Notes: generated from the letters alone by a model not told the origin. A DNA stretch of 64,000 nucleotides from an uncultured delta proteobacterium (GCA_963808625.1 CAWEHK010000025.1:64001-128000); one strand, 5' to 3'; shown: positions 8,887 through 44,800, numbered from the stretch's first letter. Translations and numbers: made by a program.

Positions 8887-8970
8887 GAGAACGTTTCGCA
8901 AGCACCGTGAAATCTCACCTGACAGGTCGTGGGCGCTTTCATCCCGAGCATAAATAATGACTTAAATGTG

Positions 8971-13580: not shown

Positions 13581-14833
<1,253 letters not shown>

Positions 14834-22357: not shown

Positions 22358-24979
22358 ATGAGCCCAACGGATGATCTGAAATGGCTTCGTGGAGGACGTC
22401 GTTTGATCCGGATGCTGGCTTCCGCCGGCTTGTTCTTCCTCCTGCTTCTAGCGGCGGGGTCGGGACCTCGGGCCGAAGGAACGGGCGCCGATGCCTTCCT
22501 TCGGTTTACGGCCGGCGGTCATGTTCTGGGCTTCGGGAAAAGCGCCCTGTACGTTGCCTCAGCCAACCACATGGTAAAGGTCGATTTGGCTGGAGGACGC
22601 GCGGTGGCGCCAGCCATGGAAGAAGGCGCGGTGTCAGGGGCGGGAGGCGCTTCCGGCAAGGCGCCGCCCCTCAGCCGGGTTGCCTACTCGGAGGTATGGG
22701 ATGGGGTAACGGTGATTTATGAAAAGCAGGACGACGCCATCTTGGAGAGCTCCTATGAGATAAAGGCGGGCGCAGGGAGAAAGGCTCTCGAACAAATCCG
22801 CCTGCACTACAACCGGCCGGTGCGTCTTGATGAGCAAGGCGATCTGATCATCCCCTGCAAAACCGGAGCGATGCGCGAACGCGCGCCAGTAGCGTGGCAG
22901 GAGACCGGCAGCGGGAGAAAGTACGTGACCGCGGCGTATCGCCTCATGAGCGAGCATGAGGTCGGGTTCGAGGTGGGTGACTACGAGGGTGGGCTTCCCC
23001 TCATGATCGACCCGACCATGACCTGGAACACCTTTCTCGGCGGCAATGATACGGATCAAGGCTATGGCATCGCTGTGGATGGAACTGGCAATGTCTACGT
23101 AGTAGGGGACAGTAATGACACCTGGGGCTCGCCTGTGCGCGCTTTTCAGGGTAACGGTGACGCCTTTGTGACGAAGCTTGACAGCAGTGGCAATCTTCTC
23201 TGGAGCACCTTCCTGGGCGGCGACGACTTCGATGAAGGCTTCGGCATTGCCGTGGATGGCAACCTGACCGCGAATGTTTACGTGACAGGATATAGTTGGG
23301 CCGGTTGGGGCGAGCCCGTGCAGGGATTTTCTGATTACAGCAACGCCTTTGCGGCGAGGCTCGCGAGCAATGGTGCGGTTGTCTGGAATACCTTTCTGGG
23401 CGGCGGCGAAGCAACAACCTATGGCCAAGCCATTGCTGTGGACAGTAATGCGACTGCGAATGTCTACGTGACCGGCTGGAGCGATGCCTCATGGGGTCCT
23501 TCGCCAGTCAGGCCTTACACAGGTTTGGATGATGCCTTTGCGGCCAGGCTCGGAAGTACTGGTGGGCTTGTCTGGAACACTTTTCTGGGGGGCAGCGGAC
23601 AGGATGCCGGCTATGGCATTGCTGTGGATCAAAATGGCAACGTCTACGTAGCAGGGGACAGCAATACCACGTGGAGCGAGGTACCGGTTCGACCATTTTC
23701 CGCCGGCGCGGACGCCTTTGCGGCGAAGCTTGACAGCAGCGGCAGTCTTACCTGGTATACCTTCCTGGGCGGGAGTGGCGAGGATCACGGAACCGTCATT
23801 GCGGTGGATGGCAATGCGACGGCAAACGCCTACGTGGCCGGATTCAGCTATGCTTCCTGGGGCTCGCCCGTCAATGCCTACTCGGGGGATGTAGATGCTT
23901 TTGCGGCCAGGCTTTCGAGCAATGGCGGGCTCCTTTGGAACAGCTTCCTGGGGAGCGAGAGCTATGATGACGGCCTTGGCATTGCCGTGGATAGAGACGG
24001 AAGTGTGCTTGTGACGGGTACCAGTACCGCCTCGTGGGGCTCGCCCCTGAGGGCGTTCTCGAATGCCGACAATCCCTCCGCCCACGATGCTTTTGTGGCA
24101 AAACTGAGTAGCAGTGGTTGGCTGACCTGGAATACCTTCCTCGGCGGCGAGCTGGCAACTACGTATGGCACGGCTGTAACCGTGGACACGATTACAAATG
24201 TCTACGTGACAGGTTATAGTGATTACACTTGGGGCTCGCCGGTGAGGGCACATTACCCATACGACCCGAACTCCAGCACCCTTGATGACGCCTTCGTCGC
24301 CAAGCTCCCGTCCACACCAACCCTGGTCGAGGTGGTTTCATTTCGTGCCAAAGCCGGAAGGGATTACATCGAGCTCACCTGGGAAACGGCTTCCGAGGTC
24401 CGGAACGTCGGCTTTTTCCTGTGGCGAAAAGGGAGCGGGGAGCGCTCCTCCGCCCGCATCAGCGGGTTCATTCCGTCCGAGAGCTTGTTTACCCTGGGCG
24501 CGAAGTATACCTATAAGGACATCGATGTGTTGCCGGGTGTCACCTACCGATACCGCCTGGAGGATGTCGATATCCACGACGGGAGAAGCTTTCACGGCCC
24601 GGTGGCGGCAACCATCGGCGATATCGTCACGGTCGCCCCGAAGCAGGGGAAAAAGGTCCCGGTTCGACCACGTCCTCGTTTCAGGTGGACCAGCGAGTAC
24701 TTCGACCGGTTCCGGCTGGAGTTCTCGGCAAGCCCCGGTTTTGAGTCAAAACAGGTGGTCGCCATCCCTCTGCCGAAAACTGGAGTAGCTGCCGCAAAGA
24801 CCCCGTGGCTCACGGCCCAGTCCTACACGCCTTTGGCTCGGGAATGGAAAGCGATCAACCGGCTTGGCTCCGGTGGCGGGCGCGTGTATTGGCGCGTAGA
24901 GGGGAAGAACAAACTGGGCGCCACGTTCCGCTCCAAAGCGAGTCATTTTTCCCTGGACCTCGGGCCTGCGTCCCAATGA
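22358..24979 (+). CDS. Secreted SBBP seven-bladed beta-propeller protein with a C-terminal FN3-like (PT..VxSF..WET.SE) domain
   Basis: Signal peptide; seven W(N/S/Y)(T/S)FLG..GIAVD..NVYV.G...DAF.AKL repeats; then PTLVEVVSFRA..LTWETASEVRNVGF..TYRYRLEDVD. Confidence 0.88.
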   Translation: MSPTDDLKWLRGGRRLIRMLASAGLFFLLLLAAGSGPRAEGTGADAFLRFTAGGHVLGFGKSALYVASANHMVKVDLAGGRAVAPAMEEGAVSGAGGASGKAPPLSRVAYSEVWDGVTVIYEKQDDAILESSYEIKAGAGRKALEQIRLHYNRPVRLDEQGDLIIPCKTGAMRERAPVAWQETGSGRKYVTAAYRLMSEHEVGFEVGDYEGGLPLMIDPTMTWNTFLGGNDTDQGYGIAVDGTGNVYVVGDSNDTWGSPVRAFQGNGDAFVTKLDSSGNLLWSTFLGGDDFDEGFGIAVDGNLTANVYVTGYSWAGWGEPVQGFSDYSNAFAARLASNGAVVWNTFLGGGEATTYGQAIAVDSNATANVYVTGWSDASWGPSPVRPYTGLDDAFAARLGSTGGLVWNTFLGGSGQDAGYGIAVDQNGNVYVAGDSNTTWSEVPVRPFSAGADAFAAKLDSSGSLTWYTFLGGSGEDHGTVIAVDGNATANAYVAGFSYASWGSPVNAYSGDVDAFAARLSSNGGLLWNSFLGSESYDDGLGIAVDRDGSVLVTGTSTASWGSPLRAFSNADNPSAHDAFVAKLSSSGWLTWNTFLGGELATTYGTAVTVDTITNVYVTGYSDYTWGSPVRAHYPYDPNSSTLDDAFVAKLPSTPTLVEVVSFRAKAGRDYIELTWETASEVRNVGFFLWRKGSGERSSARISGFIPSESLFTLGAKYTYKDIDVLPGVTYRYRLEDVDIHDGRSFHGPVAATIGDIVTVAPKQGKKVPVRPRPRFRWTSEYFDRFRLEFSASPGFESKQVVAIPLPKTGVAAAKTPWLTAQSYTPLAREWKAINRLGSGGGRVYWRVEGKNKLGATFRSKASHFSLDLGPASQ

Positions 24980-25655: not shown

Positions 25656-25943
25656 ATGAGCTTGGCGGCACAACCTATCCCCAATCCGGCAGTGCTTTTT
25701 CGAGAGGTACCCATGGATGAGTGGGCCGTCCTGTTCAATCCGGAGAACTTCTGTGCGATGTCCCTCAATGCCACCGGCGTGGTCGTGTGGAAATTGATCG
25801 ACGGGCGGCGCACGATCGCGGAGATCGTCGCGGGGGTGAAAGCCCATTTCAAGGACGTGCCGGACACGGTAACCGACGATATCGCCGCCCTGCTGAAAGT
25901 ACTGAGTGGCGACGGTTACGTGGGGTATGAGGTAACCGCATGA
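25656..25943 (+). CDS. PqqD-family RiPP recognition element (ScmD-like) 1
   Basis: 95 aa; NPAVLFRE..DEWAVLFNPE....LNATGVVVWKLIDG..TIAEI. Confidence 0.9.
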   Translation: MSLAAQPIPNPAVLFREVPMDEWAVLFNPENFCAMSLNATGVVVWKLIDGRRTIAEIVAGVKAHFKDVPDTVTDDIAALLKVLSGDGYVGYEVTA

Positions 25944-26227
25944 AGACAAGACAGTATGTGGCCAATCCGGTCGTCTCCTGCCGTGAGGAGGAAGGGGGCG
26001 CTGTGCTCTTCAATCCCGATACCGACGATATGGTCATCATCAACCCCACCGGCCGGGTGATCTGGGACTTTCTCGCGACCCCTCGCAATACGGTGCAGGT
26101 AGCGGCTCACGTCGTAGAAAAGTTCCAGGGGGTTTCCCCCGAGCAGGCGGCGACCGATGCCGAAGCTTTCCTTCAGTCCCTGCTGCCGGACTTTATTCTG
26201 GAAGCGGAGGGGACTGATGAAGCCTGA
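25940..26227 (+). CDS. PqqD-family RiPP recognition element 2
   Basis: 95 aa; ANPVVSCREEEGGAVLFNPDT....INPTGRVIWDFL; ATGA overlap with the first RRE gene. Confidence 0.88.
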   Translation: MKTRQYVANPVVSCREEEGGAVLFNPDTDDMVIINPTGRVIWDFLATPRNTVQVAAHVVEKFQGVSPEQAATDAEAFLQSLLPDFILEAEGTDEA

Positions 26228-27359
26228 GTCGATGGCGGCCATGGACCTGACCGTCCCACCCAAGGGTGTGCCCCCGGCCCCGAGAACGGTCGACCTGTCT
26301 CTTACGGGTCGCTGCAACTTGCAATGCCGCTATTGTTTTTTCGCGGACTCGATGGCTGCGCTCACCGATCTCCCAACGGTGTCATGGCTCTCTTTCTTTG
26401 AGGAGCTTGGTGAGCTGGCGGTGCTGCGGGTGACCCTCTCCGGCGGGGAGGTCTTCACTCGCCCCGACTTGTTTCAATTGCTTGACGGCATCATCGCCGC
26501 CAGGATGCGCTATAGCCTGCTCTCCAACGGCACCCTCATCACCGAGCAGGTGATCCGCCGTTTTGAGGAAGGCAAGCGCCGTTTGCGCCTGGATTCCATC
26601 CAAATCTCCATCGATGGTTCCTGTGCCGAGGTCCACAACCGCAGTCGTCCGCCGGACAGCTTCGACCGCGCCCTGAATGGGCTCAAGCTGCTCAAGGCGA
26701 ACGGCTTTCCGGTGACGGTCCGGGTTACGGTGAACCGGCATAACCTCGACGACCTGGAAAACATTGCCCGTTTGCTGCTGGAAGATATTGGCCTGAGCGG
26801 GTTCGGTACCAATGAAGTTGAATTCATGGGCGCCGCCCGCTGCCACGGCCAGGAAGTGGTGCTGACGCCGGGAGAGCGCCGGCAGGCCATGGCTGCCCTG
26901 GTCGCCCTGAACGAGAAATATGAGGGCCGCATCAGCGCCAATGCCGGGCCCCTCGCCGCGGCAAAGTCATTCTCGGACATCGAAGCCAGGCTGGCCCAGG
27001 GGGAGACGCACATGCCGGGTCGGGGGACCCTCTGCTCATGCGGCGGGGTCTTCAGCAAGATGGCAGTCCTCCACGACGGCGCGATGGTCCCCTGCGACAT
27101 GCTCCCCACTCTGGTCATGGGCAGGGCGGGCAAAGATCCCTTGCGCGATGCCTGGCTCCATCACCCGGCCATCAACGCCGTGCGAGCCCGGCGGGAGGTC
27201 CCCCTCAGCTCGCTCGCCACCTGCCGGGGCTGCCCTTACACCGGGTTCTGTGCGGGTGGGTGTCCGGCGTCGGTGATGGCCAAATATAGTCGTCTCGATG
27301 CCCGCGACCCCCTTTGCTGCTACCGGATCTACCGGGGAGAAGAGAGGGTTGATGGTTGA
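26217..27359 (+). CDS. Radical SAM/SPASM peptide maturase (ScmE-like)
   Basis: CNLQCRYC, SGGE, ISIDGS; SPASM cysteines CSCGG..PC and CRGCPYTGFCAGGCPA..C. Confidence 0.93.
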   Translation: MKPESMAAMDLTVPPKGVPPAPRTVDLSLTGRCNLQCRYCFFADSMAALTDLPTVSWLSFFEELGELAVLRVTLSGGEVFTRPDLFQLLDGIIAARMRYSLLSNGTLITEQVIRRFEEGKRRLRLDSIQISIDGSCAEVHNRSRPPDSFDRALNGLKLLKANGFPVTVRVTVNRHNLDDLENIARLLLEDIGLSGFGTNEVEFMGAARCHGQEVVLTPGERRQAMAALVALNEKYEGRISANAGPLAAAKSFSDIEARLAQGETHMPGRGTLCSCGGVFSKMAVLHDGAMVPCDMLPTLVMGRAGKDPLRDAWLHHPAINAVRARREVPLSSLATCRGCPYTGFCAGGCPASVMAKYSRLDARDPLCCYRIYRGEERVDG

Positions 27360-27402
27360 TAGTTGATGGTTGATAGTTGAGGGTTGAGGGTTGATGGTTG
27401 AT
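27345..27402 (+). repeat. Heptamer array (GATGGTT/GAGGGTT)
   Basis: About 8 units overlapping the stop of the first rSAM gene. Confidence 0.8.
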
Positions 27403-27678
27403 ATGCTCGTTTGGGTTGATAACCTTGATTTTGGCGGACTTGGGAATTAACCGCAGAGCACGCTGAGATCGCAGAGAAAGCCAATGATTCTTTCTGTGGC
27501 CTCTGTACTACTAAGGTTCAAATTGTTTAAATCTTATCAAGATTTTTGCTTAACTTTTTGTTTTCTCCGCGTTCTCTGCGTTCTCTGCGGTGGAAGAATA
27601 AATATTTGAACCTTTACGAGTATGGTTGATGGATCTACCAGGGAGAAGAGCTTGAGTTCCATGAGCTTGTGTGATTTT

Positions 27679-28830
27679 ATGGAACCGGATAACGGCCAGA
27701 GCGGACCGCTGCCCCAGGATCTGCCCGAGGGCGTGCCGCCGCTTCGAGCCTTTTACCTTTATCTCTCCACCAGCTGCAACCTGCGCTGTCGCCACTGCTG
27801 GATCACCCCGAGCTTTGTCGACGGCATTCCGGCTGGCCGAGGACGTAATTCCGGTGGAAGCGCTCCGGGATGCCGTGATCGAGGCCAAACCGCTGGGCCT
27901 CTGCCACGCCAAGCTGACTGGCGGGGAACCCCTCCTGCACCCGCGCTTTGTCGGAATCGTGGACATGCTGACGGCCGAGGGGTTGCAGATGAATATGGAA
28001 ACCAACGGCACGCTGATGACTGCCGAGCTTGGCCGCCATCTCAAGGAGAAGACCAACGTCAGCTTCATCTCGATCAGCCTGGATGGGGCCGACGCCAAAA
28101 CTCACGACCGGTTTCGCGGCGTGGTCGGGGCTTACGATGCGGCGTTGAGAGGATTGGCGCACCTGACGGATGCTGGATACAGCAACGTTCAGGTGATCAT
28201 GAGCGTCCATCGCGGCAACCTGGACCAGATCGATGGCCTGGTGCGGCTGGTGGCGGACCGCGGTGCGGGATCGGTCAAGTTCAACCCGGTTAGCTTTGCC
28301 GGGCGGGGAACCACCATGCATGAGCGGGGGGAGACCCTGGACTACGAGGAGCGGATGGCCCTGGCCGCGGCCGTTCGAGAGGAGTTGCCAGAGACGTTTC
28401 TCCATCCCCCTCATCTGCTTTCATCCACCGGCCCAGAAATCCATGCGGCACCTGTGGGATACCTCGCCGACAGCCCACCGATTGCGGGGTCCGCCACATT
28501 CTGGGCATCCTGGGGACGGGGGACATTGCCTTGTGCGGGATCGGCCGGACCGTCCCCGAGCTGGTCTACGGGCAACTGGGGAAAAACAGCATCCGGGAGA
28601 TCTGGTTGACACATCCCACGATCCTCGAGCTCCGCCGGCTTCTGGACGACTTCAGGAATTTTCCCGGCATATGCGGCCGGTGCATCCATGCCAAAACCTG
28701 CCGCACGGGCTGTGTCGCGATGAACTATGTCGACGCTCGGCAACTCGTCTGGCCGGACCCGCTGTGCCAGGAGTCAGAACGACGAGGGCTGTTTCCGGCC
28801 AGCCGGAAAAGGAAATCCGGCGGCCCTTGA
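27679..28830 (+). CDS. Radical SAM/SPASM peptide maturase (ScmF-like; indels)
   Basis: YLYLSTSCNLRCRHCWITP, LTGGEPLLHP, METNGTL, ISLDGA; C-terminal LGILGTGDIALCGIG and CGRCIHAKTCRTGCVA..LC. Confidence 0.9.
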
Positions 28831-28868
28831 GCAGCGAACACCTCAAGGAAAGCACATCATAGCAATCG

Positions 28869-29007
28869 AGTACACGTGGGCCGAAATAAGTAGCCAGTTC
28901 CGGTGGGCACGGTGAAGCTGTGCCCACCCTACAGTGTTCCCGGACCCGTAGGGTGGGCAGGTTTTTTGCCCACCGCAAACATGCACGAACTTATACCCAT
29001 GTGTACT
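28869..29007. mobile_element. MITE-like shell with AGTACAC(G/A)TGGG ends enclosing a GTAG REP doublet
   Basis: Left agtacacgtggg..ataagt, right acttat.cccatgtgtact; REP pair 28902-28974 inside. Confidence 0.6.
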
Positions 29008-29256
29008 AGAGAGATGAGTGTTCATGAGGGCCTGGCATTATTTATGCATCTCAACAGTCGAAAGTTGCGTTTGTTCTATCATTCTGGATGCCCGCCAGAA
29101 GCACGCGGGCATGACGATAGTTGGCCTGTTGCCGCACCGTCATTCCCGCAGGCTTTTGGCGGGAATCCAGAAACTGAGACAAATCTAGGATTTCACCCTT
29201 AACGAGTATAGAATGATCATTTTCATGTATAATGAACCTTTGCAGGGAGAAGCGAC

Positions 29257-29496
29257 GTGTTGAAAAATGGAAAGGACGATCTGACGGACCGGCGGCCAAC
29301 ATACGAACCACCACAGGCCTTACGCATGGATGATATCCATGCAGGGGCAGGTGGGCAGGATTGTACCTCTGGCGCTAGCGCTGGAGGTGCTAACTGCGCT
29401 ACGGGCGGCGCCGCTATCGGTGGACAGTGTATTAGTCCAGGGACTTCTGCTGCTACTGGTCAATGTAAATTTGGTGATGGAGCCTCTACATTTTAG
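29257..29496 (+). CDS. Candidate RiPP precursor peptide (YxxP leader, Cys/Gly-rich repeat core)
   Basis: 79 aa; GGAG RBS plus GTG; leader RPTYEPPQAL; Cys at 36/47/58/70 in CTSG, CATG, CISPG, CKFG; lies inside the rSAM-RRE operon. Confidence 0.85.
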   Translation: MLKNGKDDLTDRRPTYEPPQALRMDDIHAGAGGQDCTSGASAGGANCATGGAAIGGQCISPGTSAATGQCKFGDGASTF

Positions 29497-29519
29497 GGCG
29501 CAAGACTTACGGAGCTTTT

Positions 29520-30480
29520 GTGCCATGGGTGGAGGAACTCGATGAAAGCAGGGACCGGCGGATGGGGTTCGATTCGTCTCAAAAGAACTTTGGGGTCTTC
29601 TCCTGCGGGGGGGTTACTCTGATTCTAACACCATCCTCCACATATAGCCTTCCCCTTGCTGACGGGACCTGCTGGCTGGTTCGGGCCGGCGTCCCGGAGG
29701 CTGAGCACGTGGTGGCCCGTCTTGGAGCGGCTATGGAACTGCCGCCGGGCGGCGGCTCCGGCCGGGAACTGGTGGTTGGGTTCCACGGCCACCAGGCTTC
29801 CTCACCTGCTGCCCTGCGTGCAGCCCAGGGACCATCAGTGTGTCTGGTGAGCCCTCCCTGCAACGGGGAGAGGTTCGCCTTTCAGGCTATGCAGATATCC
29901 ATGACCATCGTCAGGGATGCGCAGGTCCGTGGGGGATTGCTCATTCACGGCGCGCTGGCCGCGTGGCAGGGGTCCGCTGAAAAGGCCGGCGGAATGGTTT
30001 CGGGTGCCATCATGGCGGGGCCGGGTAGCGTCGGGAAGACTACGGCCAGCAGTCGCCTGTCCGGCCCCTGGCGGTCCCTCAGCGATGACATGACCCTGGT
30101 GGTTCGTGACCCTCAAGGCCATTACTGGGCGCATCCCTGGCCCACCTGGGGGCGGTTTTTGGAAAATGCGGCCGGCGTTTCCTGGCCGGTGCCGCAGGGC
30201 CGTGCCCCTGCGGGCCGTTTTTTTCCTTTCCCAATCGCCCAACGACTCGGTAACCCCACTCAACACCGCCCAAACAATCGCCCTGCTGATCGAATCCGTG
30301 CAGCAGGCCTCCTCGCCCATGGTCTGCGCGTTGCCGGAGACCGAGGCTGCGGCTGTCTATGAGGAACAACTGGCGGCGGCCAGCGAGCTCGCCCGGACCA
30401 TCCCTGCCTACCGGCTCAGCATAAGCCTGGACGGCGCCTTCTGGAAGGAAATGGAAAGCGTGCTCGCGGCGGCCCCAGCC
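29520..30480 (+). CDS. ScmC-like HPr-kinase-fold P-loop protein (one indel near 30200; exact start uncertain)
   Basis: GGLLIHGALA, AGPGSVGKTTAS, LSDDMTLVV, YWAHPWPTW, VPLRAVFFLSQ, LSISLDGAFW. Confidence 0.82.
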
Positions 30481-31175
30481 CGCCCGGTTGCATCTCGCCG
30501 AGCGTCACCCCCTTCGCCTCGGGTGCGACTGCCCGGAAGGTCCCCCGCTGCCGGTCGTCTACACCGGTCCCAGCATGAACCCCACCCTGCAGGGAGCCGG
30601 ACCTGCTGGAGGTGGTCCCTTACGACGGAAGAGCGGTGTGCAAGGGGGACGTCATCTATTTCCACCCGCCGGGTGGGGGGCTCGCGGTCGTCCACCGGGT
30701 CGCGCGGGTCTTGCGGGAAGGCGTCCGCACCCGGGGAGACAACAACCCGATGGAAGACCCTTATTCTGTGCCTCATTCGGCCATTATCGGGCAGGTCGTA
30801 GCCGCGCAGCGGGATGGGCGTCGCCGCCGCGTCGCTGGCGGCTGGCAAGGCCGGATGCAATACCACCTGGCGAGGCTTGAAGGCACCGCGCTGCGCCTGG
30901 GCCAGAGACTCTTGAGCCGGCTGTACCAGGGGCTGGCAAGGTCCGGTCTCTTTCGCCAGGTCCTCCCCCCGAGGCTCACCCCCCGCCTGGTCGGGTTCGA
31001 AACGAGACGCGGCAGGCAGCTCAAGGTGATGATGGGAAGCCGTGCGGTAGCCCACTACCACCCGCTCGGGAGAGTGTGGCAGGTTCGTCGGCCCTTTCGC
31101 CTGTTTGTGGATGAGGCCGTTCTGCCCCGGCCCGAGAGCGAATTCCCTCAATCAGCCCCAGCGCTGGTGAAATAA
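30481..31175 (+). CDS. S24/S26 signal-peptidase-like domain, probably fused in frame to the ScmC-like protein (indels)
   Basis: VYTGPSMNPTL (Ser), GDVIYF, VVHRV (His), TRGDNN..D; no stop seen after the ScmC C-terminus before the frameshift. Confidence 0.78.
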
Positions 31176-32076: not shown

Positions 32077-32632
32077 CCCTGAAAGGGCTTCATAAGATAG
32101 CCCAGGGTCAGCGACAGCGCCACCCTGGGTGGGGACACCCGATCCCATTTTGCCTTACCCTGAAAGGGCTTCAAAATACCCAGGGTCAGCGACAGCGCCA
32201 CCCTGGGTGGGGACACCCGATCCCATTTTGCCTTACCCTGAAAGGGTTAGAGCGTGTCTGAAAATTCCCCCTAAAGCTGGTTCCCAAGCTCTGGCTTGGG
32301 AACCCACCTCCTTGGAAGCTCCAGCTTCGTCGGACTTGTGGATACCATCTCATACTCAAGACGCACGGGAAGCTGGAGCTTCCGTACCTGCGTTCCCAAG
32401 CTGGAGCTTGGGAACGAGCGAACGAGCTCCCCGACTCTTTTAAAGGTGGGTCGGAGGGATTCTTCCTTCAAGTTTTGCGCAAAATTTGAATTTTCAGACA
32501 GCCTCTTAGATAAATCGGTGTGTCGGTGTCTTCTATGTAACCCCTTCAGGGTAGATATTGGTGGTTGTGCTTGGCCCCCAGGGTGGCGCTGGCGCGCTGA
32601 CCCTGGGCTAATTTATCAAGCCCTTTCAGGGC
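32077..32632. repeat. Composite REPIN-like element (tandem plus inverted CCCTGAAAGGG/CCCAGGG units) interrupted by a MITE
   Basis: Two direct ~80-bp units at 32077-32246 and an inverted unit at 32530-32632. Confidence 0.8.
32250..32505. mobile_element. 256-bp MITE, 18-bp TIRs GAG(CG/GC)TGTCTGAAAATTC, TTA duplication, carrying two TTCCCAAG REPs
   Basis: TIRs at 32250-32267 and 32488-32505; TTA at 32247-32249 and 32506-32508. Confidence 0.8.
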
Positions 32633-32716: not shown

Positions 32717-32848
32717 GATGACCCCTTATTTCATATGCAGGGGGTGATCGATGACCCCTTATTTCATATGCAGGCGGGGGTTGATGACCGCCTGCTTCAT
32801 CTGCAGGGCGGGGTCGATGACCGCTTACTTCATCTGCAGGGCCGGATC
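32717..32848 (-). repeat. Four tandem 33-bp repeats derived from the 3' end of the giant C25 gene
   Basis: Units start at 32717, 32750, 32783 and 32816; each encodes a DPALQMK-like peptide on the minus strand. Confidence 0.88.
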
Positions 32849-35800
32849 ACCGAGAATGTTGTAAAGGTCGATCTCGAACCGCGGCTGCCCATGCGAGCTA
32901 TAATAGGTCACCGCCGAAATCACGGCGTCGCCGAGGACCCTGGTGCCGTCCTCGAAGAGGGCCTTGAACAGTCCTTCATCAAGAAGGTGGGCATAGACGT
33001 TGTAGGATAGCCCGGTGGGCACCCACCCGGCAATGATCCCGCCACCCTGCCGCAGCACCAGGGTTTCAGCGAGGGTATCGTAGTTCGGCATCCCAAAATT
33101 GCCCATCGAACAGGACATCGCCGCCAACACGGGAAGGCGTTCGGCGTTGTTGAGACCGGCCACATCACCGGTTAGCAGAATGGCCTCCACCGTCAGCCGA
33201 TCGGTGCCCGCATGGCCGATGTAGTTCATCAGCAGGGCGCCGCTGTTGATGCGCCGCAAGCAGCTTGGTGCGCGCCGCGCTGCCGCCGTCCGCCGTGCTC
33301 ACGTAAATCTTGTTCTGCGCATTCTTGTAGGCAGAGGGAAGGGTATTGAAGAGCCCATCGCTGTCTGCCTGGAAAGTCCCGCCATCATCCGGGTTGTCGG
33401 CCACCATCAGCACCTGCTGCGTCCAGGCGCCGCCACTCGAACCTTCATACGCCTTGATCTTCCCGATCATGGTCCCCAATTCCGCCGCCGTCAGCACCGG
33501 CAGCCTCCCAATCGCCATCTCCGGCACCCCGTCGTTGCCCACGAGGTCGACAAAGCGACCGTCACCGACGAAGAGACCATCAGGCGTCCCCACCATGAGC
33601 GGGGGCACGAGACAGTCACCATAACCGCGGATGTTCCGATAATCATAGGTCCCCTCTCCGACCAGCACCACATAACGGGGCGCCGGCTTCTGCCAGCTGT
33701 TATAGGTGTATGCCAGGAAGGTCTTGATCGCTTCCGGTGAGTAACACTCCGTAGTTGAACTCGTCCACGACATCCTGGAAGTCCACCACCATGCTTTTCA
33801 GCCCGTGCACGCTGCGGTAGTCCGCCAGTTCCTGGGCGGCCGCCTTCAGCAGCGCCGGGGCGATGATCAGGTAGTCAGCCCGGTTCGTCGTCTTCTTCAA
33901 GGTCGACACCTGGTCGGCAGCTACGGAAACCGGCTGCTTCACCGCCCCTCCCGTCAGGACGAGATAAGGCGTCGTCGGGGTGGCCGGGACGAAGCTCGCC
34001 CGGTAGCGCCCGGCAGCCGGCTGATCCACCGTAAGCGCCGTCACCTGGCGCGGCTTCCTGGGATCAGTCAGGTCGAACACACTGATTCCCGCGTCGCTGA
34101 ACCCGTCCACGCTCACCACCGCATTGCCGTCTCCCCGGGCGATCAGTTGCCCGTTCACCGCTTGATAGGTGCGCGCATAGGTGACGTCGAAGGAGTCTAC
34201 ATAGAACAGACTATAGGACACGCCGGGGTCGAGAACGGCCGTGACCTGCACCGTGTTGTTGCCATCCTGGAGCAGCGAGGCGTCGAAGGTCACCTGAAAT
34301 CCGTGGGCAGTCATTCCCAGCCAGGTGCTCTCGCCAACGCTTTGGCCGTTGAGCGTCACCCGGGCGTGGTGCTGCGTCGCCGTGTCGCCCACCAGTTGCA
34401 CCTTGAGGGTTCCCTGACCGCTCCCGGCGGCCCCCGGCAGATTGATGGTGAAAGCCTTGCTCCCGTAAGTTGGATTGCCGCCAACCACAAAGTCCCAGAC
34501 CCAGAAATCGGCCGCCGGATCGGTAAAGCTTGCCGTCGCGCCGATTTGTCCTGCTCGAAATGCAGGGTTTCCTGGAACGTCTTGCCGGTCACCGCCTTCG
34601 GTCCCTTGCCTTTGAGAGTGGCCATGCCCGTGCCGGTCCCGATTTCAAGCCAGTAAACATTATCTCTCGTGTAAAGGCTGTCGATTCCCTCCGCATAGAA
34701 GGTCATGCCCGCGTTTCCGCCGGCCACGCTGTAAGCCACCGGCAGACCCCGTTGGTGAGCGCAAACCGGTTTCCTTTCAGATACAGGGCCACCGTTGCCG
34801 GCGACATCCCAAAGGCCGATCCGATCGTTGCTTTATCCAGATAGTAGAGCCCGTTCTCCCGCACGGTAATCCTGGCCCTGCCCGTAGGCGCCGCGGCGGC
34901 GGTCAAGGTCGGACTGTCTGCTGACAAAGGCTGGCCGGTGGCGGTTAGCTCTTGGCTCTTGGCTCTTAGCTCTTGGGCTAAGACGCCCTGGCGGTTGGCC
35001 GCGGCCTGCTCGGCCTTCATCGCTTCGAGACGCGCCTTCCTGGCAGCCGTCATGCCGTAGGGTTTCCGGCTGTAGCCGGACACCAGGGTTTCGTTGTCCA
35101 ACTCGGCGCGAGCCTGCTTCGACAAGCCGCGGGCGGCAGGACTCGGGGCCTCGGAAACCACGCTCACCGTCCAGGGCCCGTAGACGTTCTCCTGACCCTT
35201 CGTCACCACCTCGACGAGGCGATACCGGTAGGTCTCGCCCGGTGTCGCCGAGCCGTCAACATACTGGTAGACACCGCCCTCGGGCGAAGTCAGCAGACCC
35301 GGCAGGAGATGATCGTTCAGCCGCAGGTAGTCCCCGCTCGCCGCCTCGAAACGCTCCAGGTAGAAGCCCACCGTACCCACCTCACCCGACGTCTGCCACG
35401 AGACGATGACTTGACCGCCCTGCTCATGGACATGGAAGGAAGAGATGAGCGCATAGGTCGGGGTGGGCGACTTATAGCCGAAGTCATTGCCGGTCGAGTT
35501 GAGCGTTGTTGATCGTCACCGGCTGCATCCATCCCGTGGCGCTGGACTGGGTGGTCTGGGTCAGGCCGGCCGCCGTGGTGCCCGCAGTCTGCACCGCGAT
35601 GAGATACTTGCCATTGGGCAGGTCCGTGAAGCTATAGGTGCCGTCCGAGGCGCTGAGCGTGTAGCCGATCTGAGGATCGCTCGCATCCAGCTTTCCGTCA
35701 CCGTTCAGGTCGCGGTACAGCAGCACCGCAGCCTGTTGCACCCCGGCCTCTCCCGAATTCCACGCTCCGCTGCCGTTGGTGTCGATGAAGACCTTACCGC

Positions 35801-38800
35801 TGGCAAGATAGCCTGTTCCTGCCTTGTAGCCAAAGTCCGCCGTGTAGTTGGTAACGCCGGCCCCCGAGGCGGTCAACGTGACCGCATAGGGATTGGCCTG
35901 GCTGTAGTTATCGCTCCCGGGACTTGTTCCCGTGGTCTTGTTAAACCCGCTCAGGACACTGGTTGCCACCACCTGGACCTGGTACTTGGCCGGAGGCAGG
36001 CCGCTGAAGACATACTCCCCATTGGCATTGGTCGTGGTGGTCCGGACCAGGTTGTCGATCCCCGCATGGATGGCGGTATCATTGTTGTCCAGGTTGAGCC
36101 AGAGCTGCACCGTTACTCCCTGGATGCCCGGTTCCCCGGCGTCACGGAAGCCATTGCCATTGAGGTCATGCCATACCAGGTTACCGATGGCGCCCATGTT
36201 TGCCGCCCGATAGCCGAAATCGGCATCGTTGTAGACGGGCGACCCGCTGTTCAGGGTAATCGACCCGGTCGGGTTGGCGCCCGATGTCAGGGTCAGGCCG
36301 CTCACCGCGCCGTTCAGGTCACTCACCTGCACGGTATAGGTGCCGAAAGGGACCCCATAGAAATGATAGGTGCCGTTGTCATCGGTAGTCGTGGTGCCGA
36401 CAACGACGCCGCTGTTGTTCAACAGATTGAGCGTCACCCCGCCGATGCCTTCACCCGCATTGAAGGTGTCACTGGCATTGCTATCCAGGAACACCTTGTC
36501 GCCGATGGTGCCGACGGAAGCGGTCGTATCGTCCTTGAAGCCGAAGTCAAGGGTCAGGTTAGCAGTGTTGGCCGGGATGCTCACCGTCTGGTTCACCGAC
36601 CCGGTGGTCGGGGTCGGATTGTAGCCGGTGGGTGGCGTTACCGTCACGGTGTAGGTCCCCGGATCATAACCGGTGAAGCGATACGTCCCGTCCGCAGCCG
36701 TGGTCGTGGTGGCGATGGTCGTACCGCCGTTCTTCAGCGTCACCGTCACCCCGCCAATCCCCACTTCACCCGGGTCCTGGATGCCATTGTTGTTGGCATC
36801 GGAGAACACGGTGTCGCCCAGGGTTATCTTACCGGTGGCGCTGCCGTAACCGAAGTCGGCGTTCTCGTAAATCTGGCCTTCGCCCAGGTTGATGACGCCG
36901 GTCGGGTTAGTGCCCCCGGTCAGCGCCAGGCCGGTCAGCACGCCGCTGGTATCGGTAACTCTTACCTTATAGCCGCCCGCAACCAGGCCCTGGAATTCGT
37001 AGAACCCGGCGGCGTCGGTGGTGGTGGTGGTCGCGTTGTTGTCGTCGCCTGTTCCGAAGACCCCATCCGCCCCGGCATACACGAGCCTCAGGGTGACCCT
37101 GGAAATCCCGGCCTCACCCGCATTCTGCACGCCATCGCCATTCGCATCCAGCCACACCCGGTCGCCGATGCTCCCGGTCGCCCCTTCGCGCACATAGCCG
37201 AAGTTGACATTGGTGACGCTGGTCGTCCCGACGACCGACACCGGATACTGATCCAGACCGCTGGTCAACTGGTAGCCGTTCAGGACCCCGCCCTGATCGG
37301 TCACCTTGACCGTATAGCTCCCGGCCGGCACATCAAAGAAGCTGTAGGTGCCGTCGGCAGCCGTCGTGGTGGTGGCGATCACTTTGCCGGTGCTGTCCAC
37401 GAGGGCCAGGGTCACCCCGGCCAGGCCGTTTTCACCGGCGTTGATGGCCGCATTCTTGTTGAGGTCGTTCCACACCGTTCCGGAAATATCCGCCAGTCCC
37501 GTATTCTGGAAGCCAAAGTCGGCGGTCAGGTAACGTGGGCTGGCTCGTGGTCACGAAACCATAGTCGTCAGTGGTCACCGAGCCGCTGCCGTTGACATCG
37601 AGCTGCCCCGCGATAACTTTCATGCCGTTCCACCAGCCGTTGTCGGAGGCATCTGCCGCACCGCTGCCGTTGAGGTCAAGCTTGCCGCTGATACACGGCG
37701 ACCCCGTTGGCCATGCCGGTGTCGCTGCTGTTGATCGTGCCGTCCCCATTCATATCGAGCAGGCCGCCAATGACCCGCACGCTGACGGCGCCCGTGCTGA
37801 GCGTGACGTCGATTTCCGTGCTGTTCGCCGTGGCCGGTTCCTGGTCTTTCGTCATGCGGGTGTAGCCGCTGAGAGCGGTCTGGGTGTCGGTCAATGCTGA
37901 CGAAATAGGTCCCGGCGGCTAAGTCGTTGAAGTAGTAATGGCCGCTGCCGTCGGTCGTGCATGGTCGATGGAAATGTAGGTGCCCGCGATTGAAGATGCC
38001 GTCGCCGTTGTGTCCCGGTAGAGCGTGACCGTGACGCCGGCGATGCCCGGCTCACCCAGCATCCTGGAAGGCCATCGCCGTCGTGGTCGCTGAACACCGT
38101 GTCGCCTATCGGCCCCAGGCCCGCGTAGCCGAAATGTTCACCCGTAAGGCTGGCGCTGGCGATGGTCTCGCCGCGATAGCCCGCCTGGGCATCAGCCGTA
38201 GTGCCCTGGTAGTTGATGAGCTGCCCGGCGTTGTCGGCGATTTCCATGACGTACTTGCCATTGGGCAGGCCGTTGAAGGAGAAGTTGCCATTGCTGTCCG
38301 TGTAGTCGGTGGCGATCACCGGATCCACCAGGATCGTCCCGTTATCGCCGGCTGCCGACGCCGCCGCTGCGGTTCATATCGAGCATGCCGTCGAATGACG
38401 GGAAGCCCATGTAGGCGCCGTCGTCGCCGGTATCAATACCATTGTTGCCGTTGAGATCCAGTTTCCCGCCGATCACCTTGATGCCCTGGGCCACCGTGCC
38501 ATCGTCGGCGGCGGTGACATTCCCATCGCCATTGAGGTCAAGGAGGCCGTTGATCACGTGGGCGGTGACATTCCCGTCGCCGTTGAGGTCCTGGTAGAGG
38601 TTCACCGAGACCCCGGCAATGCCCGTCTCACCGGGACTTACCAGCCCGTCGCGGTTGGCGTCGTACCAGACTTTATCGGTAATGGAATAGAGACTGGTAT
38701 TGCGATAGCCAAAGTCGGCGTCGAGATACACCTGGCCGGCGGCCACCGTGATCGGGGCGGTCGGATCGGTGTTCGACTGGGCCCCGGTGATGAGCGTATA

Positions 38801-41800
38801 GCCCGCCGGCGGCGTCGTGACGTCGACAATATACGTACCGGGATCGACATTGGTGAAGTAGTAGGTGCCGTCGGCCGCCGTGGTCGTCGTGGCAACCGTC
38901 ACATCATCGCCGGTGCCGAACTGCCCGTCCGCACCGGCGCTCTTCAGGGCCAGGGGCACGCCGCTGATCCCGGCTCCCCGCCATCCTGGATGCCGTTGCC
39001 ATTGGCGTCGCTCCACACGAAGTTCCCGATGATGGCCTTGGTGGTGCTGGCGTTGGTGTAGCCGAAATCCACATCCAGTTTGTTCTGTCCGGCGGTGAGG
39101 GTAAACATTGCCGTCCGGGTTGGTCGTCCCGGGCGATTCCGTGAGCGCCCCCAGGATCGGGTATTTGCTCTCATCCACCTCGACTTTGTAGCTCACCCCG
39201 CCGGGCACGTCGGTGAACAGGTAGTTGCCGTTCATATCGGTCGTCGGTGCTGGCGACAAACGTGCCGTCGTCGCCTTCTTGAGCGTCCACCGTCACGTTG
39301 GCCAGGCCCGGCTCACCCACATCCTGCACGCCGTCACCGTCCACATCCAGCCACACGGTGTCGCCGATGGCCCCGGGCGGGCTCTGGATCTCGAAGTCAC
39401 GCCCGGTGACGGTCTGGCCCACCGCCAGGTTACGCTGATGTTGTTGGGGTTGCCCCCGTCGCGCGTCCGCCAGGCTGGTGTAGCCGGACGGGTTCATCTT
39501 CGTCACCTGGTAGATCCGGGAGCCAGGTTGCTGAAGGTGTACAGGCCGCTGCCGTTGGTGGTCGTGGTGAACACCTGGTCGTCGGCGGTGCCCAGGATGC
39601 CGTCCGCACCCGCATAGGTCAGGAACACGGTGACGTTGGCCACGGCCGTCTCCGGCGGGACTTCGCAATGCCGTCCCCGTCGGCGTTCCTCACCACCGTA
39701 CCGCTGATGGTGCCGAGACTCTTGTGGTAGCCGAAGTTCTCGTCGATCACGTTGGCGCCGGTCGACCGTGACATCGGACTGGTTGTCGTTGGTCGGCGCG
39801 TCGGTGTCATAGGTCTGCACGTAGGCCGTCGAGGGAAGCGTGCTGGTGTCCACCTTGACCACGTATTCGCCGTTGGGCACGCCCGCTGAAGGTGTAGTTG
39901 CCGCCGGCGTTGGTGGTCGTGGTCGCGAACACCGTGTCACCGGCATCGTAGACGTTATTGTTGTTGGTGTCGTTGTAAAGCGTCACGGTGACGCCGGCAA
40001 TCCCCGGTTCTCCGCCGTCCTTGTCACCGCCGTTGTCGTTGGTCATCCCAGACCGTGCCGCTGACGTTATAGCTGGTCGAGTTCCGGTAGCCAAAATCGG
40101 CATAGCCGATGGTTGCGCCGCCGGTCAGGGTGGTGGCGGTCTGGTTGTCGCAGCCGCCTATGGACCCGCACGGCAGCCCGTTCGGCGAGCCGGAAGTGCT
40201 TTCGCCCGTTGCCGTGAAACCGGTCGGCAGGGTGGTGGTATCCACCTTCACCACGTATTTCTGATTCGAAGTGGTATTCGGCAGGCCGAGGAACTGGTAG
40301 AGGCCGGTGGCGTCGGTGGCCTGGGCCGTGATGAAGGTTTGGTCGCCCGTGGTCGTGACGTTGCCGTCGGCATCCAGGTAGAGTTTCACCGTCACGCCCG
40401 CCAATCCCGGCTCTCACCGGTGGTCTGGTTGCCGTCGCCGTTGGCGTCGTTCCACACCCGGTCGCCGATCTTGCCGGTGTTGTCCACGCCGAAGTCGAAC
40501 ACCGCTTGCCAATCCTCGCCGGGATAGGCATGGAAGGTGATAGCTGGTGGGCGTGGTGGCGTCCGGATAGCCCATCGCCGTCGTCTGCGCGGTGTTGTAG
40601 GTGAGGGTGTAGTTGCCCTCGGGCACCACGAAGGAGAAATGCCCGGTCGGCGTCGGTGGTGGTGGTCTCCGTTAATCGGGTTGCCGAACATGTCGGTGCC
40701 GGTGAGCGTCACCGTCACCTGGGTCAGGCCGTTCTCGCCCGGCTCGCTGCTGTCAAAGAGGCCGTTGCGATCGGCATCCCAGAAGACATTGCCCTCCACC
40801 TTCGCGCCCTGGAAGTAGCCGAAGTCGGCGGTCCTGATAGCTCTCGCCGGCGGCCAGGTTCTTGTACACCACGTTATTGGTGGTGGGCACGATGTTGCGC
40901 ACGCCGTTGGTGGTGATGCTGTCCTCGTAGACATCCACCAGGTAAGGTCCCGGGCGGCAGATTGGCGAACTGGTAGGCGCCGCTGGCGTTGGTAGGGCTT
41001 AAAGCCGACCTGGTAGTCGCCGTTGGCCGGATCAAGAATGCCGTTGCCGTTGGCGTCGAAGTAGAGCAGGTCACGACGGCATTGGCGATGGCCCTGCGTC
41101 GCGTTCTCATCCTGCAACCCGTTGGCGTTGTCGTCCCACCACACGTAATTGCCGATGCTGCCGGCCCAGTTGTAGCCGAAGTCGGCGGTCAGGTAGACCG
41201 TCGATTGCTGGCCAGCGTCGAGGGTGACGTCGTGCATGCCGTTGGGCGGCGGCGTTGTGATGGGCGAGCCGCCTGGCACCGCTCGAGGCTCGCCGGGAAG
41301 TCCGCGGTAGGTCGAAGTCACGTCCACCAGGTAGTTGCACCGCGCGCGGTAATCACCGGCGGTCAGGCCGGTGAAAAGGTAGTTGCCGGTGGCGTCGGTC
41401 GTGACGGTCGAGGAGCAGGTCGCCGACATCGATCGCCCGTCGTTGTTCATGTCGGCATAGAGCCGCACGTCCGACGTTCGGCATCGCGGTTTCACCCGCA
41501 TCCGACCACGCCATTGCCGTTGGCATCGAGCCAGACGGTGTCGCCGATACTGCCCTGGTGCCCGGGGCGGCCGCAGGCCGAAGTCGGCGTCGCTGTACTG
41601 CTCGGTCGGCGCCCAAGCTTGGTGTGGTCTGCAGCAGGGGCGTGCTCGCCACATAGCCCTGGCCGGGATGAGAGTAGCGGACGTTATACGGCGGTGCCCG
41701 CGGTCAGGCCATAGAAGCGATAAAGGCCGGTGGCATCGGTGGTGGTCCACTGCTCGCCTTCGCCGCTGTCCCAAACACCGTTGTCGTTGCCGTCGGTCCA

Positions 41801-44800
41801 ATCGAGGAACGCCATCGTTCGGCGTCAAGCTAGACCGTGACATTCGCGATGCCCGGTTCGCCCGTGTCCGTGTCGGGCCCACTCCGTCGCCGTCGAGGTC
41901 GGCCCACACGAGGTCGCCGATGCTGGGGCCGATGGCGGTGGTGGCGTCGTCGCTGGCATCCAGTCCCGCGCCTTCGTCGGTCAGGGTGGCAGTGTTGTTG
42001 ACCTGGGTCACCCGGCGTATTGTTGACGGTGACCTGATAGGTCAAGGGCGGGCTGGCGCGCAGCCCTTCCGACGTGCCGGCGTTGAAGGTCACGCCGCTG
42101 GACGAGGTGGGCTTGCCCCGGAAGGTGACCGACGAGGGCGAGCCGCCCGGCGTGACGCTGCACACGTACTTGAAGGTGACCGGAACATCGGCCGCGAGAT
42201 CGACCGGGCCGGTCGGAGCCGCGCTGCCGCAGCTCACGGTGGCCGCACCGGGGTTGATGGTCAGGCTGCCCGGGCTGACCCCGGTGACGGCCGCCTTGGC
42301 CGAGACCATCATGGTCACTTCCACCTCGCTGGCGGTCGTGCCGGAGTGCAGGCGGTCGTTGATGTGCAGCTCGGTGCGCGTCTCGGTGGACGTGGTGGGT
42401 GTCAGGGTCCAGTTGACGATCAGCTTGGGCCGGTTGGCGGCAGTGGTGGATTCGCGGGACGAGTAAACGACGTCATTGTCGAGAATTGCCGCCCGTACCG
42501 GTGGTGATCAGCACCAGCCCCTTGTTGATCTTGGTTCCGGCGACCCAGGCTTCCACCAGGGTCTTCAGCGCGGCGTTGCTGAGGGTCTTCAAGCCGGTGG
42601 AAGACGGGTCGATGGTCCCCAGGGCCGTGCCGTTGTAGTCGCTGGTGGAAAACGTCGCCGCTGGCCCAGGTGGCTGCCGTTCGTCCTTGTCCCAGGTCGC
42701 ACCGGTTTCGGTCCAGCCGCCGGTCGTCATCTCGTAGACGGAGTCGGTGTGGCCGGTCCTGCGCGCGTCAGGACATTCATCTGCAGGGTCACGCTGTTGA
42801 TCGTGGCGCCCGAGGGGATGCTGCTGAGGTCGAAACGCAACAAGGCGTTCGGTCGTTCGTTGGTCTTGCTCGCGTGGTGACAAGGTCGTCAGAGGTGCCG
42901 TTATTTTTGGCCTGCTCCGGGTCTTTCCGTTGATCTAGGTATCGGCCACCGCCGGGGCATCAGCGTCACCCGAGCAGGCGCTGCTGGACTCGTAGAGATA
43001 GTTGATGACGAGCGCCGGCTTGGTGGTGCCGGAGCGGCTGACACCAGGTCGCGTCCGCGTTCTCACTGGTGCCGGTCGCCAGGAGGACCATGCCGTTGTT
43101 GGGGCCGGTCTGCCAGCTCTTGACCAGGTCCGTCACAGCGAAGGTGGCGGTGGTTTCGGTCTGGGGCACCACAAAGGAGCCGTAAGACAGTGGCGCCGTA
43201 GTCGCTGGCGCCGAACCCGCCGCTCGTCGCCCAGTCGCCCGCAGCAGCCCCATTGGGATCGTTCCAGGTGGCCGTCGTCTCCGCGAAGGCGGTCAGCAGA
43301 TTACGCACCTGGACCGTTTGCTGCTTCTTGTTATTGGCGTAGTTCGCCGACATCGTGATCTGGAGCGTGGCCGACTGGATCGAGGCGCCGGCCGGCAGAG
43401 TGCTCAGGCTGAAGTGCAGGAGCGCATGCTTCTTCTTGTTGGTCTCGTTACTGGTCTTGAAAGTGGTGGTCGTGCCACTGGCATCGCCGGCGGTATCTTT
43501 CGAGTTCTCGTTGATAAACGTGTCCGCGTCGGGGTTCAACGGTCAGCGTCGCCGGGCAGAAGACCTTGCCGGAGGGCGGGGTGATGCCGGGCTGGGCGGC
43601 GCTGTTGCCGCCGAGGGACCAGACGATGGAGTCCAGGCTGCCATCGTCGGATCGATCGATCAAGGAACTCGCCGCCCGCATTCGCGCTGTCGGTCACATA
43701 CGTGGTGCCCGCCGGGATCGGGTCGGTCACCTTGGCGTTGGTCAGCAGCTCAGGCCCCGGGTACTTCGGCAGGATGGTGTAGGTGAGGGTCTGTCCGGCG
43801 CGTGGCCGTGGCGAGATTCACCGTCTTGTCGATCAGGGGCTCGAAGGGGAAGTCGGCCGTCAGGTAGGCGGTGCCGGCGGGCAGAGCGATCGCATACTGG
43901 GTCGACGCTGGTCGACAAACCGGCCGGGATGTCCGATCGGAGGTGTCCACCACGACGATGTAGTCGTCGGCATCAGGCCGTCGAACAGGTATTTGCCCGT
44001 GGCGTCGGTAACTGTGGTCACCGCCGTGGCCGCCTCATTGCCATCGATGATGCCGTTGCCGTCCAGGTCTTGATACAGGGTGACGGTCACGTTCGCCAGC
44101 GGGGTGTCGCCGGTGGTGAAATTGCCATCACCGTCGCGGTCGATGAAGACCTGATCGCCGATGGAGCTGGGGACGAGCCGGTCGTAGCCGAAGTCCTGCG
44201 TGGAAGTGCCGGAGAGGTTCAGACACCGGGCGCGGGTCTACCCCGTCCGCGCCGGAGACCGCAGAATAGGTGTCAGAGCCGAAATGGCCGGCGAGATCCG
44301 GGTCGGTCTGCACGATGTCCACCAGGTAGCTCAGGCCGCTGGCCAGGCCGGTGAACTCGTAGATAGCCGTTGGCATTGGTCACGGTCGGTGGCAATCAGC
44401 AGATCACCGGTATCGATCTGAGCCATTGCCATTGGTGTCTTCGTAGAGGTTGACCGTGACATCATCGATCTCGGTGTCGGCCGTAGTGTAGTCGTTATCG
44501 GGCGCGGCCGAGTCTTCGTAGACGGTGCCGTTGATGGCCGCCGTGCCGGCGGGCCTGTAGCCGAAGTCGATCGTCGAGGTCGCGCCGTTTTCCGGCAGGA
44601 CCACCAGGGCCCGGCCATCCAGCGAGCCTTGCGGATCACCGGTCAGGACATAGCCGGCCGGGACGCCGCTGTCGATGGCCACCCAGTAGGTTGCGGCGGC
44701 AAGCCCGGTGAACGAGTAGAGGCCGCTGCTATTGGTCGTGGTCGGTCTGCACGCCAACGTCGTCATCGCCGGTGGGCTCGAAAATCCCGTCGCCGTCATC

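Follow-up and report, generated by a model that had tools for sequence, protein, structure and literature searches.

The window analysed here is a stretch of 64,000 nucleotides (G000:C25:64001-128000) from the draft genome of an uncultured delta proteobacterium, which comprises 54 contigs and is 84.6% complete. Seven co-oriented genes lie on its + strand between positions 25656 and 31175, encoding two PqqD-type adaptors, two radical S-adenosylmethionine (rSAM) enzymes with SPASM domains (ScmE and ScmF), a 79-residue peptide with four cysteines, a P-loop protein (ScmC) and an S26 peptidase. The initial annotation had listed these seven elements, all of which were found on this strand at these coordinates, and had assigned them to a SynChlorMet-type cassette for a ribosomally synthesised and post-translationally modified peptide (RiPP). 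SynChlorMet is defined by five families (TIGR04252, TIGR04249, TIGR04248, TIGR04250 and TIGR04251), and the same five occur in the window in the same D-E-F-A-C order. The window proteins are 38-47% identical to those of two canonical cassettes, G015 (from a related complete genome) and G057, and the window precursor resembles the canonical one in the layout of its leader and repeats; the window differs in carrying a further PqqD gene, diverged and placed directly behind the first. The locus is very probably a genuine RiPP operon of the SynChlorMet type in an indel-rich draft metagenome-assembled genome, and the operon is probably functional.

We compared the cassette with related loci from other genomes. 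Eight ScmC queries gave 140 tblastn-confirmed stretches with ScmC relatives, one genome per species, and the best 80 of these were used, many of them cut by contig ends. The common architecture of the 80 loci was D-E-F-A-C followed by an S26 peptidase and then often by an NTP_transf_5 protein and an MsbA-like exporter. The S26 peptidase was present in 58 loci, ScmF in 53, ScmE and ScmD in 51 each, an ABC exporter in 33 and NTP_transf_5 in 30. The synteny comparison that the initial annotation had proposed showed that the D-E-F-A-C order recurs in dozens of loci, G015 and G057 included, and because profiles made from other cassettes also cover every window gene over almost its full length, the layout goes far beyond chance. 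The ScmC relatives in the 140 stretches range from Thermodesulfobacteriota to Methanocella. Of 401 genomes that were sampled from the phylum, 17 had an ScmC score above the cut-off, as had 2 of 61 related genomes and none of the 7 from the same genus; the cassette is sporadic among relatives. With 140 confirmed stretches and 17 genomes above the cut-off in the phylum, the rarity claimed earlier for this cassette did not hold up.

The candidate precursor gene (29257..29496, +) lies between scmF and scmC, as in G015 and G057, and begins with a GTG start preceded by a Shine-Dalgarno-like AGGGAG. Its product has a leader that reads T-Y-E-P-P-Q-A-L-R-M-D-D and a core of four C-x-x-G-x-x-A-like units. 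It had been stated that cassettes of this type were described without a known precursor or product. The precursor part of this statement is incorrect, as the model TIGR04252 'SCM_precur_ScmA' exists. We found no paper on the cassette or its product, and the family is defined in silico only. Small open reading frames (ORFs) with a [YFW]-x-x-P-x-hydrophobic leader and a tail rich in Cys, Gly, Ser, Thr and Ala were collected from the related loci, giving 74 distinct family peptides. Such ScmA-like peptides were present in 52 of the 80 loci and lay directly upstream of scmC in 39, so that homologous cassettes do carry a similar small ORF, the lack of which had been named beforehand as a reason to discard the assignment. 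With filters disabled, a profile of 31 peptides that excluded the window sequence was searched against all 109,502 six-frame pieces of the genome. The window ORF was the sole significant match (28.0 bits, E 1.2e-5), and the next had E 0.21. In the alignment (A3), the proline of the YxxP motif (P19) and three Cys-x-x-Gly pairs (C36/G39, C47/G50 and C70/G73) were invariant. Because of the unique genome-wide match and these invariant leader, Cys and Gly positions, the 79-residue ORF is assigned as the predicted ScmA-type precursor. As judged from sequence, the window cassette belongs, as a divergent member, to a family that has already been catalogued together with its precursor.

Across the 74 peptides, 260 of 420 Cys-Cys gaps were 8-10 residues long, position +3 after Cys was Gly in 76%, +4 and +5 were mainly Ser, Thr or Gly, and Ala was the commonest residue at +6 (34%). 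The repeat unit can be written as C-x-x-G-x-x-A plus a short spacer, with the last unit complete and nothing after it, and the C-terminus lies 6-8 residues past the last Cys in 60 of the 74 peptides. This short tail fits one modification per Cys with a partner a few residues downstream. Before the first Cys, the family shows the pattern A(-4)-x-G(-2)-x-C. This pattern fits the preference of signal-peptidase-type enzymes for small residues at -3 and -1, and the window peptide suggests leader cleavage between A-G-G and Q-D-C. At five other loci (L055, L104, L117, L119 and L121) the small ORFs encode 119-150 residues with up to 19 Cys and adjacent CC pairs, and these long precursors (up to 150 residues) combine the same YEKP leader with a core of another style.

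The first PqqD-type recognition element (25656..25943, +) is a ScmD-like adaptor. Its best NCBIfam match was TIGR04248 ScmD with 72 bits (cut-off 100), Pfam PqqD gave 54.2 bits, and it is 42% identical to the ScmD of G015; in the tree it is sister to the canonical ScmD clade on a long branch. The second element (25940..26227, +), whose start overlaps the stop of the first by 4 nt, is a diverged second adaptor that scored 46.6 bits with Pfam PqqD, 37.7 bits with ScmD (its top NCBIfam match) and 36.3 bits with the lasso-type PqqD family NF033530. It is 34% identical to the first adaptor over 82 residues and falls outside the group formed by that adaptor and canonical ScmD, both adaptors sitting on long branches. 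This tentatively suggests that the two PqqD genes are not sisters and diverged anciently. Two ScmD-type genes were found in only one of the 80 related loci, where they are non-tandem and lie in two sub-clusters, and the nearest fetched relative, a 1,230-nt contig with 69% ScmE identity, showed one PqqD within the 680 nt available. The second, diverged tandem PqqD gene, as predicted here, is an unusual feature of the present copy.

The ScmE gene (26157..27359, +) has an intact frame with a likely ATG start at 26217 or 26232. ScmE matched TIGR04250 with 388.3 bits (cut-off 400) over positions 1-350 of the 358 in the model, as well as Pfam Radical_SAM (87 bits) and SPASM (29.5 bits), and is 43.8% identical to the ScmE of G015. 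The CxxxCxxC motif and the SPASM motif CX2CX5CX3C are both legible. The ScmF gene (27622..28830, +) is read in three frame pieces, on all of which TIGR04251 was the top match (31.9 + 168.2 + 70.3 bits). A profile of 53 sequences aligned with it at positions 16-43, 51-231 and 261-371, and the CnlrCrhC motif and the SPASM cysteines are retained. The second Cys of its 'CGVC' was considered as a lesion and rejected, since the family consensus conserves only one Cys there. ScmE and ScmF are paralogues with 25% identity, and both have complete SPASM motifs but lack a recognition domain fused to the enzyme. Among solved structures, ScmE came closest to the thioether-forming SkfB, although at low similarity (E 2.4e-12, 49.8 bits), and then to PqqE. 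SkfB carries its own N-terminal recognition domain.

Downstream of the precursor gene, scmC (29520..~30465, +) encodes a two-domain HprK/PEPCK-like P-loop protein in two frame pieces, PEPCK being phosphoenolpyruvate carboxykinase. TIGR04249 was the sole match of the pieces (71.7 + 76.7 bits), no family was found for ScmC in the Pfam scan, and a profile of 19 ScmC sequences matched the window with 18.6 + 106.5 + 89.0 bits at positions 9-55, 103-213 and 212-302. In the alignment, the window protein keeps the family positions of the G-K-T Walker A motif, the His, the DD and the PTW. The ScmC profile matched the HPr kinase/phosphorylase (HPrK/P) structure 1jb1 in the P-loop region (E 4.8e-4). An AlphaFold model was made of the G057 homologue, which is about 30% identical, rather than of the broken window gene (pLDDT 87.1, pTM 0.85). 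Residues 5-310 of this model superposed on ATP-dependent PEPCK with Z 15.0 and rmsd 4.1 over 254 residues, and Foldseek matched the model to ATP-dependent PEPCK with E 1.4e-6. The kinase domain of HPrK/P belongs to the PEPCK fold class. ScmC is thus predicted from the homologue's model to have a PEPCK-like fold with a Walker A motif.

The last gene (30488..31175, +), also in two frame pieces, encodes a soluble S26 peptidase, the putative leader peptidase, which resembles the archaeal/SipW/SEC11-type signal peptidase I and has no membrane anchor. The GPSMNPT serine box lies in frame 2, and the HRV and RGDNN boxes lie in frame 3. Its larger piece matched TIGR02228 with 38.3 bits, and a profile of 51 cassette peptidases matched the window with 195.4 bits at positions 23-209. 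This match takes in a C-terminal extension of about 100 residues that is conserved and specific to the cassette family, and the window peptidase is 38.5% identical to that of G057. The parts list of the initial annotation stands with the peptidase included, but the peptidase is no extra: it is a regular cassette member, because 58 of the 80 loci contain it and 51 have it immediately after ScmC. In one metagenome locus with 46% ScmE identity (L125:2417-4030), the S26 peptidase and ScmC form a single ORF of 537 residues with the peptidase first, and this fusion supports a functional coupling of the two proteins.

Part of this gene set, comprising half of the enzymes, has an experimentally tested counterpart in the linear polyphosphorylated peptide (LPP) clusters of Bacillota (Popov et al., Nat Commun 2026; PMC13381572). 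According to that paper, deletions and mass spectrometry demonstrated that LppK adds up to four phosphates to Ser3 of the core, and that deleting this HprK-like kinase halts Ser3 polyphosphorylation. LppS removes the leader, deletion of this signal peptidase I-like (SpI-like) peptidase halts removal, and cleavage requires the adaptor LppB; the leader bears YxxP. As far as the published description allows comparison, the window shares with LPP clusters a discrete PqqD-type adaptor serving as recognition element, an HprK-like P-loop protein, a soluble SpI-like peptidase with Ser/His/Asp residues, and YxxP. An NTP_transf_5 protein and an MsbA-like exporter are shared with LPP clusters by other Scm loci only and are absent at the window locus. 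The text of the LPP paper does not contain the terms 'radical SAM', 'rSAM' or 'SPASM', whereas the window has two rSAM/SPASM maturases; LPP clusters as described there hold a nucleotidyltransferase and an exporter and no other class-defining maturase, and their product stays linear. LPP cores, in the same description, have no Cys repeats and are cleaved between F-E-T and A, unlike the site suggested for the window. Of the LPP leader consensus given there, YxxPxVLxHQxIxFETxxS, the window leader shares only Y-x-x-P-x-[hydrophobic or Ala]. The Scm cassette thus appears to combine an LPP-type toolkit with an rSAM/SPASM pair and a Cys-repeat core. The functional reading in the initial annotation holds as far as can be judged from the genes: it listed a substrate and a leader peptidase, two elements for recognition, a pair of rSAM/SPASM enzymes and a protein resembling a kinase. 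Its inference of a RiPP of uncharacterised chemistry now needs qualifying in that the module of kinase, peptidase and adaptor has a tested counterpart in the LPP system as reported.

Other RiPP systems share single parts with the cassette. Like ScmE and ScmF, SkfB and CrpC of Methanococcus voltae are SPASM rSAM enzymes with leader-bearing, Cys-repeat substrates, and CrpC, according to its description, installs ranthionine links (PMC13692751). CrpC has its own N-terminal recognition domain in that account, whereas ScmE and ScmF would rely on discrete PqqD proteins. Sactipeptide and ranthipeptide motifs are CxxQ/D or Cx3D, whereas the Scm repeat is CxxGxxA and the two paralogous enzymes of the Scm cassette always come as a pair; the predicted likeness to these classes consists of the SPASM enzyme class and the Cys-repeat core only. 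Paeninodin-type lasso tailoring uses the same HprK-like kinase and NTP transferase families and a [Y/W]xxP leader bound via a discrete PqqD, as far as the source describes it (PMC13381572). Pfam and NCBIfam scans of the window ORFs found no lasso cyclase or B2 peptidase family, and the leader in Scm cassettes would be removed by an S26 serine peptidase, unlike in the lasso system.

The window holds the features that define an Scm cassette in the broad sense, namely a PqqD protein with ScmD as its best match, adjacent co-oriented ScmE and ScmF, a downstream ScmC and an ScmA-type precursor. Several observations weigh against the assignment or against details of the proposed route. The search with curated Scm models suggested in the initial annotation was borne out in that the best match of each enzyme was an Scm model, but the curated equivalog cut-offs were missed: ScmD scored 72 against 100, ScmE 388.3 against 400, and the summed ScmF pieces 270 against 400, while ScmC passed its cut-off of 125 only by summing two pieces. 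Three of these scores are lowered by frame breaks. TIGR04252, a model of 49 positions, had no match in the window peptide at E <= 10; against the G015 small ORF, likewise located between scmF and scmC, it gave 75.3 bits, and against the G057 peptide 12.6 bits, and since it misses the window peptide and barely matches that of G057, the model is narrow. No tandem PqqD pair was found in the five metagenome loci obtained by an ScmE scan. No cassette-type ABC exporter lies on the contig of the window, and NTP_transf_5 is not adjacent, the only one found in the genome being on contig C51. With one Cys per unit, the two rSAM enzymes cannot both use each Cys, and the role of one of them is unexplained. 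The context of the LPP phosphorylation site and the LPP leader beyond YxxP, as published, are not conserved here. The scmC frame has no stop at the end of the family and stays open to 30801; this end therefore hides either a fifth error or a genuine change. All frames are those of the assembly, for which no sequencing run is listed that would permit a read check.

The breaks themselves could mean that the cluster is a decaying pseudogene locus, genuinely frameshifted in scmF, scmC and the peptidase gene and yielding no product, and we weighed this reading together with others. The initial annotation was right that indels need repair: tblastn with proteins of intact cassettes and profile alignment mapped four frame breaks, at ~27816-27842 and 28390-28477 in scmF (tblastn frames 1/2/1 across the pieces), at ~30193-30198 in scmC, within a GC hairpin that precedes a T7 run, and at ~30590-30600 in the peptidase gene. 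Decay would account for four breaks and an absent ScmC stop within 3.5 kb, for a cassette adjoined by neither exporter nor nucleotidyltransferase, and for its occurrence in none of the seven same-genus genomes. The same assembly, however, splits rpoB and rpoC into five frame pieces each (G000:C22:89339-97463), and bamD, prfA and murA are also split in the window (8119-8957, 11103-12183 and 13581-14804). The indel density is about 1/kb assembly-wide, no lower than the rate in the cassette. The broken genes match profiles of 53 ScmF, 19 ScmC and 51 peptidase sequences over almost their full length and keep their motifs; within frames they are free of internal stops and deletions and have lost no catalytic motif. 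Since rpoB, rpoC and other window genes are equally fragmented and the Scm genes are undecayed, we conclude from the assembly that the frame breaks are assembly errors, and gene decay is a very improbable explanation. Still less credible is that the 79-residue ORF is a chance frame and the true substrate is encoded elsewhere. It matches no curated family, and its low-complexity composition causes the bias filter of HMMER to discard it under default settings, so that the genome scan missed the window's own peptide until the filters were turned off, when it became the top match. It is nevertheless the only significant genome-wide match of an independent profile, its position, strand and ribosome-binding site all fit, and the YxxP Pro and the Cys and Gly columns are common to 31 peptides.

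The chemistry of a functional operon is less settled than its existence. Our preferred reading is that the rSAM chemistry is thioether formation, with one Cys-derived ring per C-x-x-G-x-x-A unit and four rings here, and sequence comparison favours this to a moderate degree. The operon could be functional and its rSAM chemistry be epimerisation, C-C or C-O cross-linking or another Cys conversion, in which case the Cys residues would form disulfides, bind metal or give rise to another group. Two distinct rSAM/SPASM enzymes act on a core with a single Cys per unit, the solved relatives of ScmE include PqqE (C-C), SuiB (Lys-Trp) and YydG (epimerase) at similarly low scores, and conservation of the core after Cys is highest at Gly +3 and Ala +6, which are no classic acceptors. 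SPASM maturases on Cys-repeat cores, however, mostly form sactionine or ranthionine links. The peptide also ends 6-8 residues past the last Cys, as expected of a short Cys-anchored ring, and CrpC, as described, makes sactionine/ranthionine-type links on a Cys-repeat core (PMC13692751), which leaves non-thioether chemistry possible but the less probable of the two. A similar choice arises for ScmC, which might be no peptide kinase but an ATP-binding scaffold or chaperone, or a phosphorylase, aiding the rSAM enzymes or the peptidase in handling the precursor. HPrK/P is bifunctional, which counts in favour of such a role, as do the weak HPr kinase similarity confined to the P-loop region (E 4.8e-4), a best fold match to PEPCK rather than to a protein kinase, and the absence here of the context of the phosphorylated Ser3 of LPP. 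Against it, the G-K-T Walker A motif, the invariant or near-invariant His, the DD and the PTW are present in the window copy, 30 of the 80 loci also contain NTP_transf_5, and the LPP system, as reported, shows phosphorylation with a set of adaptor, HprK-like protein, SpI-like peptidase, NTP_transf_5 and ABC transporter. We regard a non-kinase role as unlikely and, by analogy with LppK, somewhat favour phosphorylation of a Ser/Thr residue of the peptide by ScmC.

The preferred reading of a thioether-forming and phosphorylating operon gives the following route. The 79-residue ScmA-type peptide would be bound via its Y-x-x-P leader by a discrete PqqD protein, as indicated by the family and by the solved LppB and lasso B1. 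ScmE and ScmF would then install radical-SAM modifications on the core, and ScmC, with its PEPCK/HprK fold, may subsequently phosphorylate a Ser/Thr residue of the peptide. The soluble Ser/His/Asp S26 peptidase would cut off the leader, probably behind the small A-x-G residues that precede the first Cys and probably through adaptor-assisted presentation, as for LppS. Speculatively, the second PqqD protein may serve the pair of kinase and peptidase and the ScmD-like one the rSAM pair. As no exporter or NTP_transf_5 is adjacent, export or further tailoring would be encoded elsewhere. By analogy, the most likely product would be cross-linked once per Cys repeat, phosphorylated and leader-trimmed.

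Several further observations were made around the cassette and elsewhere in the genome. The spacer between scmE and scmF contains, according to Tandem Repeats Finder, eight copies of a 7-nt unit (27347-27402) and three copies of a 9-nt unit (27563-27589). GC-rich palindromic repeats lie between scmF and the precursor gene (within 28900-29200), and tandem repeats of 78-nt and 33-nt units lie downstream of the operon (32077-32246 and 32717-32800). Promoter and terminator scans gave results at chance level only. The minus strand carries a long run of SdrD_B, DUF11 and CBM96 fragments (37891-45961), which are probably one or two giant surface proteins split by the same assembly errors. The NTP_transf_5 gene on contig C51 (G000:C51:146718-147878, L128:7719-8879; Pfam 196 bits) lies amid GDP-mannose dehydratase, epimerase and ABC-2 transporter genes, a setting that recalls the polysaccharide-locus association reported for LPP clusters. 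A second, simpler cassette is present in the same genome (G000:C12:17963-20900, L022:5970-8900). It encodes a 61-residue peptide (L022:5970-6155) that contains two Cys and has a leader of the YEKP type, an S24/S26-like ORF (6089-6664), an HprK-like protein (6651-7583) with 53 bits to ScmC and 37 bits to HprK_rel_A, a PqqD protein (7498-7875) and a single rSAM/SPASM enzyme (7872-8900). Both cassettes adjoin an SBBP/AgmC-like beta-propeller repeat protein and a peptidase C25/PorU-like gene (window 22358-24979, +, and 32825-34488, -; L022:1179-5963), whether by linkage or coincidence.

The present copy adds little by itself to knowledge of the family, being divergent, in an error-rich draft assembly and without an exporter, and intact relatives such as the G015 or G057 cassette are a better experimental start. 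Because the assembly is frameshift-rich, no gene of this genome should be called a pseudogene before it has been checked against reads. The wider proposal that Scm cassettes make a new RiPP class, with a radical-SAM ring per CxxGxxA repeat, leader trimming and LppK-type (poly)phosphorylation, and, in the present two-adaptor variant, with two PqqD proteins dividing the work, is one we put forward with considerable doubt; if true, the ScmE/ScmF pair would be served by one PqqD protein and the ScmC/S26 pair by the other. Scm cassettes occur widely among anaerobic bacteria and archaea, and the link to LPP, which does not extend to the two rSAM enzymes, gives testable predictions for three of the cassette proteins, namely adaptor-assisted leader cleavage by the S26 peptidase and phosphorylation by ScmC.

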